Below are positions 11,067 through 14,816 of a stretch of DNA of 20,000 nucleotides, piece by piece. Under the pieces are notes generated by a model that did no database searches, had not been told where the DNA came from, and saw nothing but the letters and a program-made list of their open reading frames with translations. Each line of letters starts with the position of its first letter. Within the stretch, counting starts at the first letter, position 1. The position numbers and the translations under genes are program-made. Source of the stretch: an uncultured virus (IMG/VR IMGVR_UViG_2061766007_000957) (lineage: Duplodnaviria > Heunggongvirae > Uroviricota > Caudoviricetes); the IMG/VR virus record IMGVR_UViG_2061766007_000957, positions 44,585 through 64,584 of that record; one strand, written 5' to 3'.

Positions 11067-11108
11067 AAAAAATAAAAATAGCAGATTTCCGTAGAAACCC
11101 ACTATTTT
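11067..11108 (-). terminator. Rho-independent terminator closing the cassette
   Basis: Stem AAAATAGTGGGTTTC / GAAATCTGCTATTTT with a C(UACG)G tetraloop, followed by a U-rich tail. Confidence 0.85.
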
Positions 11109-11125
11109 CAATAATTTGATGGCAT

Positions 11126-11497
11126 TTAGAATTCAATATTTGAAAGGTTTTCTTCTATTATATGGCGTTCTTCAGGTAAATCGGTGCTGTTATATAGGAT
11201 ATGCAGAAACTCCAATACTTCTTTGCATATAACCGCAATATGAGTTAATACGGCTTCCTTTTCTGTCCCAGTTAATTGATATTGCCTTTTAATATCACAA
11301 TAACGTTTATAGCTGGGGAGTATATCAGTCAATTCCTTCCCTACCACATCATTTTTAATTGCTGACACTTGATTTAAGGCTTCTGAATTAAAATGTCTTA
11401 CAATGTATAGGGACGCCAGCTTTTCACAGTTGTTAAAAGTTGTATCGTTGTCCTCCAATTCTTGAATTGTATTCTCTACCAGCTGCATATCTAACAT
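11126..11497 (-). CDS. Hypothetical helical protein (last cassette gene)
   Basis: 123-aa ORF overlapping the ferritin-like gene's stop. Confidence 0.8.
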   Translation of the reverse strand: MLDMQLVENTIQELEDNDTTFNNCEKLASLYIVRHFNSEALNQVSAIKNDVVGKELTDILPSYKRYCDIKRQYQLTGTEKEAVLTHIAVICKEVLEFLHILYNSTDLPEERHIIEENLSNIEF

Positions 11498-12063
11498 ATG
11501 CTCACCTTCAATTCTTCTTCACATAGCTTTTGATATTTCTTATGCTTGCGTCCCTGCTCCTCGATGATCATAGTCATATCATAATTGGTTGCTTCTTTAT
11601 TCAGCCAATAGCGTTCAGCCTTTTTAAGCTCACAGTCCACATCCTCTATAAACTCTTTAACCTTCATGGCGCTGGCTACTTCATTTATGGCAATCAATTC
11701 TTTATACATCTGTTCATAGAGCTTCTTTGTATCCCGCTCCCATTCAACCCATTTTGTAAGACCATTCTTTACTCCATTCTGTTTTGTTGAAATATCAACA
11801 TCAGATCTTACATGGTTATACCAACTGTCCGGTATGAGATTTGGATCCTCAATTTTTTCTTCGGGAATCAAATTATCATGATGATTGATAAAGTACCTAT
11901 TCAAACTTCTATATCCCAGCGTTTCTTTCAAGAAATGGTATTCATGGCATCTTTTATAACCCTTCAATCCGAGAAAGTCATAATAGTTTGCCATTTGATC
12001 ATGGATCATCATTCCTTTTATCATATGAGATGCCAGCTTACTATATATCTCTTTCAGTTCCAT
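11491..12063 (-). CDS. Ferritin-like four-helix-bundle protein
   Basis: HDQMANYYDFLGLKGYKRCHEYHFLKE and WVEWERDTKKLYEQM...FIEDVDCE follow ferritin-like helix and ligand spacing. Confidence 0.7.
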   Translation of the reverse strand: MELKEIYSKLASHMIKGMMIHDQMANYYDFLGLKGYKRCHEYHFLKETLGYRSLNRYFINHHDNLIPEEKIEDPNLIPDSWYNHVRSDVDISTKQNGVKNGLTKWVEWERDTKKLYEQMYKELIAINEVASAMKVKEFIEDVDCELKKAERYWLNKEATNYDMTMIIEEQGRKHKKYQKLCEEELKVSIC

Positions 12064-12283
12064 TATTTTCCTCCAATAATTTTATGATATGGTCGAGCTT
12101 GATATCCTGCATCTCAAGATGGGAATGGATCTCCTGTAATAACATTTCAGCTTTATCTGCTAAATCATTTTGCAATTCCTGCTTATCGGATTGAGTTACA
12201 TTTTCATCGAGATTTATTAAACCGATAACAAAACTCATCACGGTCAATATATCCAAGAAATCAAGCTGACCATTATTTGTCAT
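12041..12283 (-). CDS. Small hypothetical protein (hydrophobic N-terminus + coiled coil)
   Basis: FLDILTVMSFVIGLINL followed by a heptad-rich region; overlaps the downstream gene. Confidence 0.75.
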   Translation of the reverse strand: MTNNGQLDFLDILTVMSFVIGLINLDENVTQSDKQELQNDLADKAEMLLQEIHSHLEMQDIKLDHIIKLLEENNGTERDI

Positions 12284-12284
12284 A

Positions 12285-12662
12285 TCAACATACCTTCGTT
12301 ACTACAATATTTGCATCCGTAAAAGTTGCAGATGCAGATCCAGTATTTCTTACCTGTATATTAGTTGGCTGACTGCAGCAGCATTTCGTATTATTTTCTG
12401 ATACCGGAACAAGGGTTACAAACGAAGGCGAAGTGCCAGTTGATTGAGCCTGCGGTAGAGCCACACCATCTTTGAATAACTGAATAGTAGCTGCCGTAGC
12501 AGAACTTGCATCTACTGATACCATATATACACCGCATTTATTCAATTCTATAGTAGATACCCCATTTAATTTAACCGTACATCCTTTTTCGATAGAAGTA
12601 TTGTTAAAAGGTATTGCCGTATCCTGTGGTACTGTTACATTCAAACTATATGCTTCTAACAT
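12285..12662 (-). CDS. BclA C-terminal / C1q-TNF-like beta-sandwich protein
   Basis: AIPFNN...TIELNKCGVYMVSVDAS...IQLFKDGVALP...IQVRNTG...ANIVVTKV follows the BclA-CTD/C1q strand pattern, with a CCC insert; RBS AAGGAGG. Confidence 0.6.
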   Translation of the reverse strand: MLEAYSLNVTVPQDTAIPFNNTSIEKGCTVKLNGVSTIELNKCGVYMVSVDASSATAATIQLFKDGVALPQAQSTGTSPSFVTLVPVSENNTKCCCSQPTNIQVRNTGSASATFTDANIVVTKVC

Positions 12663-12680
12663 TTACTCATCCTCCTTGTT

Positions 12681-12711
12681 AAAAATAAGAGGAGCAGTTG
12701 CCCACTCCTCT
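12681..12711 (-). terminator. Internal intrinsic terminator of the cassette
   Basis: AGAGGAGTGG-GCAA-CTGCTCCTCT followed by TATTTTT. Confidence 0.75.
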
Positions 12712-12755
12712 CGATACATAGGCATACTATATATGCTCACCAAATATAAATTTGT

Positions 12756-13406
12756 TTATACTCCACAACCACATCCGCAAAACGGACTCATTCCAGCATT
12801 GTAAGTCCAAGAGTTAGGATATCTTACAACACCATTGGTAGCCTGCGCCAGCTGTAACTGATTAACCTGTGCCTGCAAAGCTTCAATCTTATCCTGCGCC
12901 AGCATATCTTTTACCGACTGGATCTGCGCTGTGATATTTGCATTAGTAGCTGCATCTCTCATAGCGCCGTCATAATTTGTCTGCTGAATTAACTGCTTCG
13001 TCTCACAGCAGCATTCATTCTGCTTTGCAAGAAGGTTTGCCTGACCTACCTGTAACTGTGCAATATCTCTCTCAGTTTCATTGTAAAGATTCTGCATGGC
13101 CATCAAGCTATCATGGAATGTCTGATTAGTAGCTGCGATACCTGCCTGACCCTGAGCATTCACTGCTGCGAGAATGTCTCTGGTCTGTGCCTGAAGATTC
13201 TGGTTATCGAATCCACGCTGCACTTCATTAGATGTAGCGAGGTTCTCATAACCGATGGCATTATTAAAACCGCCCCAGCCAAAACCATTGCCACCCATCA
13301 TTGCAAGAATGAGAAGTGCGAAGATCCAGAAACCGCCACCGCCGAAACTGTCAACGCCATTTCCACCAATAGGCATTACCGGCATAATTCCCGTACCGTT
13401 ATCCAT
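12756..13406 (-). CDS. Gly-rich / TM / coiled-coil / Cys-cluster protein of unknown function
   Basis: GGGGFWIFALLILAMMGGNGFGWGG, a long Gln/Ala coiled coil containing ECCCE, C-terminal FCGCGCGV; very strong RBS AAAGGAGG. Confidence 0.85.
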   Translation of the reverse strand: MDNGTGIMPVMPIGGNGVDSFGGGGFWIFALLILAMMGGNGFGWGGFNNAIGYENLATSNEVQRGFDNQNLQAQTRDILAAVNAQGQAGIAATNQTFHDSLMAMQNLYNETERDIAQLQVGQANLLAKQNECCCETKQLIQQTNYDGAMRDAATNANITAQIQSVKDMLAQDKIEALQAQVNQLQLAQATNGVVRYPNSWTYNAGMSPFCGCGCGV

Positions 13407-13435
13407 TTGTTTTCCTCCTTTAGATTTTGTATATA

Positions 13436-13681
13436 TTAAGCGTTGCGCATCGCTTGTATGATTTGATCCGCATCTACATTCATTTGCTTTGCAAGATCTC
13501 GAAATGCCTTTTCCGGATTTCCATTAGCAGCTTGTATCAAAGAATTAACCTGCGGATTTCGTTGAAGCATTTGTTGAATCATTGCCTGCGGATTACTCAT
13601 AGTCTTAAACTGCTTTATGAGATTTGTGATATTACTTGATAATTGGCTTTGCGGATTTAACTGCTGATACAGATTTGTCAT
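13436..13681 (-). CDS. Small Gln/Met/Asn-rich protein
   Basis: NPQAMIQQMLQRNPQV...NPEKAF; RBS GAAGGAG. Confidence 0.8.
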   Translation of the reverse strand: MTNLYQQLNPQSQLSSNITNLIKQFKTMSNPQAMIQQMLQRNPQVNSLIQAANGNPEKAFRDLAKQMNVDADQIIQAMRNA

Positions 13682-14006
13682 TTGCGTTCTCCTTCATTAT
13701 TGATTTAACCAAAGAAGCCAGCTCATCTTTCTTAACATATCCGGTTAGATCTACATTTGGAGTTGAAGTATTAGTTATCTCTTCAAATCTAAAAGTCCTC
13801 AAATTACACATACCTACATTATCGGATACCTTTATATAGAAGATCCCATCGTTCTCACTATCTAATAAAATGCAATTAGATGCTGGCATTAACTGAAAAG
13901 CCTTTGCCCCTTCAATTCCCTGCACCCAGTTTATACCATTATGGTTTTGCTGGGCGACATAATTCATTTGCGGAAACATAGGGTTTGTTATTGTTGGATT
14001 GATCAT
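13632..14006 (-). CDS. Hypothetical protein (P/Q/M-rich N-terminus, WVQGIEGAKAF domain)
   Basis: 124-aa ORF with RBS GAGGAGGAG; INWVQGIEGAKAF...LLDSEND-IFYIK...YVKKDEL. Confidence 0.85.
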   Translation of the reverse strand: MINPTITNPMFPQMNYVAQQNHNGINWVQGIEGAKAFQLMPASNCILLDSENDGIFYIKVSDNVGMCNLRTFRFEEITNTSTPNVDLTGYVKKDELASLVKSIMKENANDKSVSAVKSAKPIIK

Positions 14007-14124
14007 GGTTTATACTCCTCCTCGATAAGTTAGATTGAGATTGAGTATATGCAAAGAATGCATATACCGGAGAACAATTTAATTCTTTCATTATGTTTTT
14101 AAGATCATTACTTATATCTTTCAT
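13939..14124 (-). CDS. Possible leaderless small ORF at the start of the cassette
   Basis: MKDISNDLKNIMKELNCSPVYAFF...; ATG lies 6 nt after a TACAAT -10-like box (14131-14136), with no RBS. Confidence 0.35.
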   Translation of the reverse strand: MKDISNDLKNIMKELNCSPVYAFFAYTQSQSNLSRRSINHDQSNNNKPYVSANELCRPAKP

Positions 14125-14139
14125 ACTCTTATTGTAAAT

Positions 14140-14170
14140 AAAAAAGAATCCCACTAAATGTAGGATTCTT
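14140..14170 (-). terminator. Intrinsic terminator ending the tail/holin block
   Basis: AAGAATCCTAC-ATTTA-GTGGGATTCTT followed by TTTT. Confidence 0.75.
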
Positions 14171-14198
14171 ATACAAAAATTCTATTGATAAATATATG

Positions 14199-14513
14199 TT
14201 ATTTGTCCCTTAGATCTGCAACTGCTTGCTCAAGCTTATAAGTACGCTCGATAACAGAATTATGCTTCTCAACCTGCTTTGCTAAATCATCGAATTTTGT
14301 TTCTATGATTTCAACTTTCGTATTTATTTGAGAAAGTTCATTTTGCAGGGAATGGATTTCTGCATGAGTTTGCTGATGATATTCATCAAGCGTTTTCTGC
14401 ATATCCTCCCTTGTTTTATCTCTTTCTTTTCTTGCGGACATTTGCCATGTTCCCATCGAAACAAGAAGCGTTACTCCACCTGAAATTAAAGCGCATGCAA
14501 TTTCTGCATTCAT
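14199..14513 (-). CDS. Holin-like / XhlA-like membrane protein
   Basis: Single N-terminal TM segment (IACALISGGVTLLVSMG), coiled coil, and the L..QVEKHN.VIERTYKLE motif typical of Clostridial phage lysis-region proteins. Confidence 0.65.
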   Translation of the reverse strand: MNAEIACALISGGVTLLVSMGTWQMSARKERDKTREDMQKTLDEYHQQTHAEIHSLQNELSQINTKVEIIETKFDDLAKQVEKHNSVIERTYKLEQAVADLRDK

Positions 14514-14526
14514 AATTTTATTCTCC

Positions 14527-14613
14527 TTACATATATTTATCCATAAACCATTGAATTAGCAGGCATATAATCGTCATTACTATTCCAATGGATAATACAA
14601 ACAAAAGAGCCAT
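14527..14613 (-). CDS. 28-aa single-TM peptide
   Basis: MALLFVLSIGIVMTIICLLIQWFMDKYM; fills the intergenic gap, and its stop overlaps the next RBS (TAAGGAG). Confidence 0.55.
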   Translation of the reverse strand: MALLFVLSIGIVMTIICLLIQWFMDKYM

Positions 14614-14615
14614 AT

Positions 14616-14816
14616 CTATATCACTCGTTTCATTTTATCTTTTACTCTTCTTGCCAGCTTAGAAACTTGAGCTTCTGATACATTCATTTGTAGAGCTATT
14701 TGTATATTAGAACAATCCTGCGAACGTAAATTAAAATATAATAATTCATCCGGAGTGAAATTGCAAAGCTCTCTAAATGTATTCAGTTCTGGTACAGTGA
14801 AATCTCTAAGCTTCAT
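14616..14816 (-). CDS. Stand-alone GerE/LuxR (sigma region 4-like) HTH regulator
   Basis: NFTPDELLYFNLRSQDCSNIQIALQMNVSEAQVSKLARRVKDKM matches the LT..E.......G.S...IA..L..S..TV......I..KL pattern. Confidence 0.75.
   Translation of the reverse strand: MKLRDFTVPELNTFRELCNFTPDELLYFNLRSQDCSNIQIALQMNVSEAQVSKLARRVKDKMKRVI

Follow-up and report, generated by a model that had tools for sequence, protein, structure and literature searches.

The last 20,000 bases of a 64,584-base caudoviral record from a cattle-gut virus (IMG/VR IMGVR_UViG_2061766007_000957, positions 44,585 to 64,584; hereafter, the window) contain a compact cassette of seven small genes, A to G. The record is represented in bovine gut metagenome runs of one study, which may be its source, and is 96% complete. 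Within the window the cassette is preceded by tail genes and followed by replication genes, all on the minus strand. The core members A124 (13632..14006) and B81 (13436..13681) overlap and lead into C216 (12756..13406), the universal member. D125 (12285..12662), which resembles a stand-alone C1q-like C-terminal domain (CTD) of BclA, abuts E80 (12041..12283), and E80, the ferritin-like F190 (11491..12063) and the helical G123 (11126..11497) form an accessory group in which E overlaps F and F overlaps G. Terminator-like structures on the same strand flank these genes. The upstream one (14131..14170) combines a hairpin (14170-14144), a T tract and a -10-like hexamer (14136-14131) and probably marks both the end of the upstream late transcript and the start of the cassette; the closing hairpin (11073..11110) precedes the replication genes. 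A further hairpin with a T tract (12687..12712) separates C from D. A preliminary description of this DNA had proposed seven to eight co-oriented, mostly coupled genes between two flanking hairpins, and the coordinates, overlaps and strand bear this out for seven, with the proviso that the number of hairpins between 10000 and 16000 (five, versus 3.3 +/- 1.8 in shuffled sequences) is by itself not above chance.

To place the cassette in context, we collected 100 related loci (cited as L001 onwards) from sequence samples consisting mostly of gut data. The open reading frame (ORF) for C was recovered in 97, and removal of nine loci (duplicates, fragments and the window's own locus) left 88 for counting members. 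Such counts are floors, as some loci stop at contig ends, and three of the 88 are non-Firmicute variants. Gene order is conserved across unrelated phages, indicating that the cassette is more than a chance assembly. Co-occurrence had been named beforehand as a check, and in most of the 88 loci, phage and prophage alike, A-B-C do recur together with D or an unrelated protein, D' (A is present in 73, B in 71). The cassette therefore stands as a self-contained, uncharacterised, co-inherited module. No description of it was found in the literature searched, which covered few subscription papers, so that phage proteomes or screens may exist unseen.

No member but C is common to the Firmicute, Treponema, crAss-like, Vibrio and enterobacterial versions. 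With crAss-like, Vibrio and enterobacterial proteins left out of its construction, a profile nevertheless scored 120 bits against the crAss-like protein, 66 against the Vibrio protein and 11-27 against five enterobacterial ones, over most of their length; 200 shuffles of each reached 6.8 bits at most, and the Yersinia protein was marginal. The family is very large (7449 of 8000 candidates match, in 1864 clusters at 50% identity) and unnamed, with no Pfam or NCBIfam model; in the ESM Atlas it corresponds only to unnamed viral clusters, P0234 there having no named match. C216 carries a Gly-flanked hydrophobic stretch, a CCC motif at residues 132-134 and a CGCGC tail, and D125 carries a CCC motif at residues 94-96, just as the preliminary description had it. 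It is the cysteines that the C family keeps: an internal Cys pair is present in 87 of 88 loci and at least two tail cysteines in 80. The AlphaFold2 (AF2) monomer has a helix at 26-37, a single long helix at 59-189 (~19 nm) and disordered ends (predicted template modelling score, pTM, 0.35). A 19-residue hydropathy of at least 1.6 is found in 103 of 169 proteins, and mean net charge is -1.1 before the hydrophobic stretch and about 0 after it, a pattern compatible with a membrane anchor that would leave the coil in the cytoplasm. Among PDB matches to the C profile, HEF2 of influenza C/D came first (E 0.046 in 177,635 sequences, not significant), and we put this and the autotransporter and spike rows down to coiled-coil composition. 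C is interrupted in one Treponema bin (L025 7001-7972). In one genome bin (G001) it occurs on eight contigs (C13, C19, C21-C24, C30, C33), reflecting either many prophages or a bin that gathered phage contigs.

Two features point to a high output of C. The codon reference was taken, phage by phage, from its major capsid and tail genes, which in G000 (the present record) and CPD1 were recognised by eye. By likeness to this reference C ranks second of 77 genes in G000, second of 52 in Bas08 and second of 46 in CPD1, three unrelated phages, and A, B, E and G rank 59-75 of 77 in G000. Across loci, C shows a positive bias towards optimal codons in 75 of 87, compared with 24 of 72 for A, 29 of 69 for B and 34 of 78 for D. 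The second feature is the hairpin that follows C: structures of -15 kcal/mol or lower occur after C in 68 of 89 loci, E. coli phages included, and after A, B and D in 15 of 73, 13 of 72 and 15 of 79, respectively (paired P ~1e-11). Expression may step down at this hairpin, leaving C in large excess over D-G. Judged by these signals, C appears to be made at capsid-like levels in rumen siphoviruses, crAss-like phages and T1-like coliphages.

Downstream of C, the positions are filled from a changing repertoire. A small beta "head" is encoded by D in 43 of 88 loci and by D', which has neither a PDB match nor a profile link to D, in 35. D125 matches Pfam BclA_C with E 1.2e-7 and 32 bits, below the cut-off of 38, and its family profile matches BclA (3TWI) with E 4e-7 and 9H38 with E 2.5e-5; the latter is the F-BclA-CTD, according to the accessible part of PMC12357932. 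The likeness to a BclA C-terminal domain that had been noticed from the letters alone thus holds by profile, and D, which has a conserved Cys cluster, may form a cap or knob. E80 (16/88 loci) has a hydrophobic N-terminal stretch and a short coiled coil. G123 is found in nine of 88 loci and matched no family in Pfam and NCBIfam scans. The suggestion of a ferritin-like bundle fared unevenly. X99, a 99-residue alternative to F, is clearly ferritin-like (BfrB, E 3e-6); it is a half bundle that keeps the half site E-x6-Y and E-x2-H. F190 is a putative four-helix bundle whose profile finds archaeal ferritins weakly (E 0.007-0.016), although ferritins fill most of its list of PDB matches. In alignments of F190 the ferroxidase ligand set is incomplete: the ExxH His and the first Glu are missing, other His and Glu residues being conserved instead, and the site is non-canonical.

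A ferritin-like gene is present in 26 of 88 loci (F in 16, X99 in 12), and a helical Y protein in 46 (DUF7841 in 29, RG/Y-rich types in 17). No locus has both, versus ~14 expected under independence. A quick maximum-likelihood tree of 93 C proteins requires seven changes for the ferritin-like and Y labels, at least four of them on well-supported branches, and 17 for D versus D'. From this exclusion and these changes we conclude that the slots after C have been swapped repeatedly, bearing in mind that G and the N-terminus of some Y proteins are possibly distant relatives whose link clustering would miss. Other genes visit the cassette as well. A 120-residue protein with invariant Cys, His and Asp (f11), a putative cysteine protease without a Pfam or PDB match that might conceivably remove a double-glycine leader from C, is encoded ahead of A or behind Y in 11 of 88 loci (L033, L037, L054, L057-L059, L062, L085, L089, L091, L099) and is absent from the window. 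HNH-type genes are inserted at different points of the cassette in unrelated phages (L098 4122-4745, L099 6157-6951, L073).

The two proteins encoded ahead of C had both been called low-complexity, a label that suits B and not A. B81 is low-complexity throughout and helical (Q 17%, N 14%, M 7%), and its profile found only a designed protein and M protein in the PDB, no natural relative of note. A124 has a P/Q/N-rich N-terminus followed by a small alpha/beta domain and a C-terminal helix, and AF2 predicts the domain with confidence (predicted local distance difference test, pLDDT, 83.5 overall, with blocks within 31-70 at 96). It has no PDB fold match (best Z 3.6). An SH2-like fold was considered for A, and the Foldseek values (E 0.07 or worse, Z 3.6 or less) were non-significant. 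Relatives of A in BFVD are labelled Siphoviridae, Myoviridae and Podoviridae. A may be an adaptor, and B, which may be likened to Met-rich chaperones of the STI1 type, may be a chaperone for the hydrophobic segment of C.

Upstream of A lies H66 (14616..14816, minus strand), a 66-residue protein consisting only of a helix-turn-helix (HTH) of the sigma-70 region 4/LuxR type. Its identification as GerE does not stand: it scores E 4.5e-4 and 20.2 bits against Pfam GerE, whose cut-off is 23.5, and of two relatives scanned, one had no GerE match and the other passed the cut-off and scored higher as Sigma70_r4 (for the relative in L047, 1e-10 versus 6e-7 for GerE). The H family does travel with the cassette, being encoded upstream in 43 of 88 loci. 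Nor is the gene immediately upstream here, as had been stated; ~610 bases separate it from A, with a hairpin and two ORFs between. One is a 28-codon hydrophobic ORF (14527..14613, minus strand), known by translation alone, whose membership of the cassette is not shown. The other (14199..14513, minus strand) encodes 104 residues with an N-terminal transmembrane segment and a coiled coil, "holin-like" by appearance and with weak coiled-coil matches only; it has one relative among L001-L027, within the lysis block of L002, and is an insertion between H and A rather than a core member. A transmembrane protein (12/88 loci), sometimes with a 48-residue Cys-rich peptide, often lies just before H (L001 1833-2205, L002 2176-2557, L007 4596-4946), and the two may be further accessory members.

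In the 61 loci with a usable start for A, self-similarity of the sequence upstream of A peaks at a lag of 11 bases only. Where H lies within 300 bases of A, the mean z at lag 11 is 2.41 and z is at least 2 in 19 of 31 loci, compared with three of 31 at lag 9 and one of 31 at lag 14; where H is farther away, such repeats occur in four of 10. H is thus probably an activator of the cassette promoter, much as RinA/ArpU-type proteins activate late phage promoters. A -10-like hexamer is commonly found 24-38 bases before A, and the layout of hairpin, T tract and -10 element is kept in the window as well as in L004, L011, L062 and others. In many loci the cassette follows lysis or tail genes, which fits late expression. 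The leader of A in the window also contains a perfect inverted repeat (14045-14067; 9-bp arms, 5-base loop), a possible operator or RNA hairpin, and a doubtful 61-codon ORF (13939..14124, minus strand) that overlaps the start of A and has no relative among the ORFs of L001-L100.

We surveyed genomes with the C profile (A2). Every tally counts one or two seed genomes, and groups are named from record titles, a caution being that bins may hold foreign contigs and labels can be wrong. C was found in three of 201 genomes of the family of a Lachnospiraceae bin (one of them the seed). For the order of Ruminococcus flavefaciens the tally was six of 201; for the class that includes a Bacilli bin, six of 300 (the positive genomes each below 2.4 Mb; G985 was left unscored); for a Treponema bin's genus, 12 of 151 (two seeds); for the family holding Phascolarctobacterium, eight of 140; and for the order that includes a Gastranaerophilales bin, four of 151. 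Treponema loci have the order H-A-B-C-D'-F/X99, and one (L121) sits between a tail gene and an integrase. Cultured phages provide firmer evidence on hosts than genome bins. Ceridwen, a phage of Butyrivibrio fibrisolvens that the available portion of PMC7372960 describes as lytic, encodes H, A, B, C, D, Y and G; C. perfringens phages encode A, B, C, D', E and F; crAss-like phages have DUF7841 and then C; and a Vibrio phage has C and one small gene. These surveys indicate a phage module that is mobile and infrequent in every group tested, rather than a host sporulation gene set, and not one enriched in spore formers.

A relative of C is also present in 231 phage records, nearly all with enterobacterial hosts. 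In the seven records of this type that we opened (T1-like, Queuovirinae-type, Yersinia and Edwardsiella), C heads a four-gene operon with other partners; the T5-like record opened contained a C fragment, and in many T5-like phages (including L101 4791-5120) such fragments lie beside the L-shaped fibre gene. Alignments of only five sequences gave genes 2-4 of the operon no link to A-G above 50% probability. Gene 2 (L095 4452-4799 and relatives) is His-rich and without a Pfam match, and its terminal acidic helix pair recalls MazG-type metal sites by eye. Because cultured E. coli K-12 phages (Bas08 DanielBernoulli, KurtStettler and CAjan) carry a version, function can be tested at the bench. The one proteome found, that of swan01 (PMC6563131), is uninformative on C since that phage is without the operon; PMC5758909, on Seuratvirus, has no proteomics in its accessible text, and PMC8594841, as far as available, does not discuss the operon.

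Taken together, these observations lead us to favour, tentatively, a late operon that yields an abundant, membrane-anchored coiled-coil protein, C, which would carry a small amount of D as a cap and, after lysis, be cross-linked through cysteines into a matrix around the progeny. H would bind the 11-bp direct repeats upstream of A and switch on an A-B-C-D(-E-F-G) transcript, in which the hairpin after C and capsid-like codon use would make C dominant and the rest minor. A and B would keep the hydrophobic N-terminus of C soluble and aid assembly. C would be anchored in the host membrane, with its ~19-nm and probably trimeric coiled coil extending into the cytoplasm and capped by the C1q-like D. 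Apart from C, a hydrophobic N-terminus is visible by eye in E alone, and the partners of C therefore probably stay in the cytoplasm until lysis. Once exposed to air, the CCC motifs and the cysteines of the tail would be oxidised, which would join C and D in a fibrous mesh rooted in the membrane; this could clump progeny virions and shield them on their way from one animal to the next, with the ferritin-like protein as an exchangeable metal or redox helper. Our best guess for the product is thus a disulfide-linked structure, and the mechanism would resemble Cys cross-linked spore fibres or a viral occlusion matrix, with no need for sporulation. Spore appendages, according to the portion of PMC12357932 at hand, likewise combine CC motifs with C1q tips. 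A bolder proposal, somewhat doubtful at present, is that tailed phages of at least four bacterial phyla share a self-regulated kit for an oxygen-cured mesh rooted in membrane around their progeny, a counterpart of the occlusion body or spore coat that would explain how phages of strict gut anaerobes survive between hosts.

Several other functions would account for parts of these data. An abundant C might remodel the membrane or envelope of the living infected cell or lysogen, in superinfection block, lysis timing or counter-defence. The conserved hydrophobic anchor, a dedicated promoter and regulator, the occurrence in prophages with an integrase (L121) and the swappable accessory slot in T1-like phages would all suit such a role; however, capsid-level codon bias and Cys clusters would seem to exceed what these functions usually need, and carriers include phages described as lytic (PMC7372960, in the part available), so that we consider it doubtful, if possible. 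The ferritin-like F and X99, with the half site of the latter, and the His-rich second gene of the enterobacterial operon might instead suggest that a membrane-attached scaffold inside the cell, with its Cys clusters and its ferritin-like or His-rich helpers, binds or stores metal and shields replication against oxidative damage. This we think unlikely, given that most loci are without a ferritin-like gene, that unrelated helical proteins take its place and never accompany it, and that F is without the His and first Glu of the ferritin centre. It seems rather unlikely, too, that the products are whiskers or decoration on the virion, with C as a fibritin-like fibre and D at its tip, serving in mucus or cell binding or in tail-fibre assembly. 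The cassette does often adjoin tail-fibre genes, C shares structural-gene codon use, and GenBank labels include "putative lateral tail fiber chaperone" and "spike protein/glycoprotein", but we found no experiment behind those labels, C starts with a membrane-type helix, and the cassette is common to unrelated virion types and lies away from or opposite to structural genes. That genomes labelled as sipho-, myo- and podoviruses all carry it, at positions that bear no relation to one another, speaks against fixed docking on a single kind of virion.

The preliminary description had favoured remodelling of the host's spore coat or exosporium by a gene kit with a GerE-like regulator. D does resemble the BclA and F-BclA heads, some hosts sporulate (those of the C. 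perfringens phages), and gut phages are known to carry sporulation genes, as the accessible part of PMC10294663 reports; a search of that paper for the terms coat, BclA, exosporium, cotJ, gerE and ferritin found none of them. Hosts met here also include non-sporulating bacteria, namely Treponema, Butyrivibrio, Phascolarctobacterium and enterobacteria. Phages of non-spore-forming bacteria carry the cassette too, and it is therefore not a spore-coat kit: the same cassette occurs in genomes of the Treponema genus and in the Butyrivibrio phage, and C in E. coli, Vibrio and crAss-like phages, so that carriers are not confined to endospore-forming hosts. An equal frequency in phages of non-sporulating hosts had been named in advance as grounds for abandoning the spore link, and C is in fact more frequent in the Treponema sample than in any of the three Bacillota samples. 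The cassette proteins match none of CotY/ExsY, CdeC, CotJC and CotF, and A-G have no coat-family match in Pfam or NCBIfam at E 0.1, which leaves room for a remote fold likeness of B, E and G. Furthermore, neither a tyrosine integrase nor a large serine recombinase was found in this phage, in a record 96% complete, and there is thus no sign of the lysogeny that would give it spores to remodel. Spore remodelling as a general function is largely refuted, and we regard it as very improbable here.

A number of observations weigh against the cross-linked matrix that we favour. Codon bias and hairpins indicate abundance, not purpose, and we found no proteomic, electron microscopy or RNA evidence of the product. 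The AF2 model of C is a monomer with a low pTM, and its trimeric state is something we infer. The Vibrio and Yersinia C proteins are without the Cys-rich tail, and the enterobacterial and Vibrio versions have different partners and no D, so that a D cap is not universal. Close relatives do without the operon: swan01 has other genes in the slot, and T5-like phages keep fragments. Lag-11 repeats also occur in six of 20 loci in which H is undetected, and the window itself has no clear 11-bp repeat upstream of A (z 0.0; lag 11 gives 12 of 24 matches, and lags 13-14 do at least as well), activation by H being here extrapolated from relatives for that reason. Finally, a link to the gut is inseparable from sampling, since gut data dominate the samples searched. 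Whatever C builds, it is a common and overlooked product of phage infection. If a protective matrix is indeed formed, models of gut phage transmission and persistence would change, and filtered virome preparations would lose such particles.

The remainder of the record has several features of its own. Major capsid, major tail, tape measure, terminase and endolysin-with-holin genes were identified by eye. The first and last 150 bases (G000:C1) are near-identical and not identical, and therefore represent a diverged repeat rather than a clean terminal repeat. ARAGORN detects a tRNA-Ile with anticodon TAT at 1440-1513 of the window (minus strand); this tRNA is unusual in bacteria, where ATA is normally read by a modified CAT tRNA. 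At least eight genes of differing length, scattered around the terminase and lysis genes (G000:C1:15588-24864), share the N-terminal motif W-I-T-x-x-G-x-H-I, possibly a common capsid-targeting tag. A block with QueC-, QueT- and deaminase-like proteins by eye (G000:C1:39728-43678) suggests 7-deazaguanine DNA modification.

Among known systems, H is comparable to phage late activators of the sigma-70 region 4/LuxR type and to GerE, being likewise a small HTH-only protein beside the promoter it probably controls, but it falls under the GerE cut-off, is linked to 11-bp direct repeats and occurs in Treponema prophages. The prokaryotic ferritins and BfrB (2JD6, 3KX9, 3QD8) are matched by the F190 and X99 profiles, X99 keeping half of the di-iron motif; in contrast to them, the F site is non-canonical, X99 is a half bundle and both are optional, and neither CotJC (Mn-catalase) nor CotF is matched. 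C shares a Gly-rich hydrophobic N-terminus and a long N/Q-rich helix with class I fusion subunits and trimeric fibres, such as influenza C/D HEF2 and trimeric autotransporter stalks, but its match to HEF2 is not significant and we claim no homology; T4 fibritin offers an analogy for a C fibre. If the cassette does make a bulk matrix that gathers and shields the transmissible particle, as proposed, it would resemble insect-virus occlusion bodies and the sporesilk/A-ENA matrix (PMC13111695, as far as accessible), a likeness of role alone, without a sequence or fold link; no description of an occlusion-type matrix in tailed phages was found in the literature searched. The closest comparison is with the C-terminal domains of BclA and F-BclA (1WCK, 3TWI, 9H38), which the accessible part of PMC12357932 places in the exosporium of the B. 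cereus group and in F-ENA's tip fibrillum. D is the same domain by profile (E 4e-7 and 2.5e-5), and the systems share CC motifs and what would be a knob on a trimeric stalk. Neither D nor any other cassette protein contains a collagen-like (Gly-X-Y)n repeat, and none matches the ENA pilin families DUF4183/DUF3992 in Pfam. Unlike its exosporial counterparts, D stands alone, with neither an exosporium leader nor, at its N-terminus, the F-ENA hook M-P-x-x-x-P-x as described in the available text of PMC12357932; it is exchanged for the unrelated D' in 35 of 88 loci, serves phages whose hosts include non-sporulating bacteria, and would receive its stalk from a separate coiled-coil protein.

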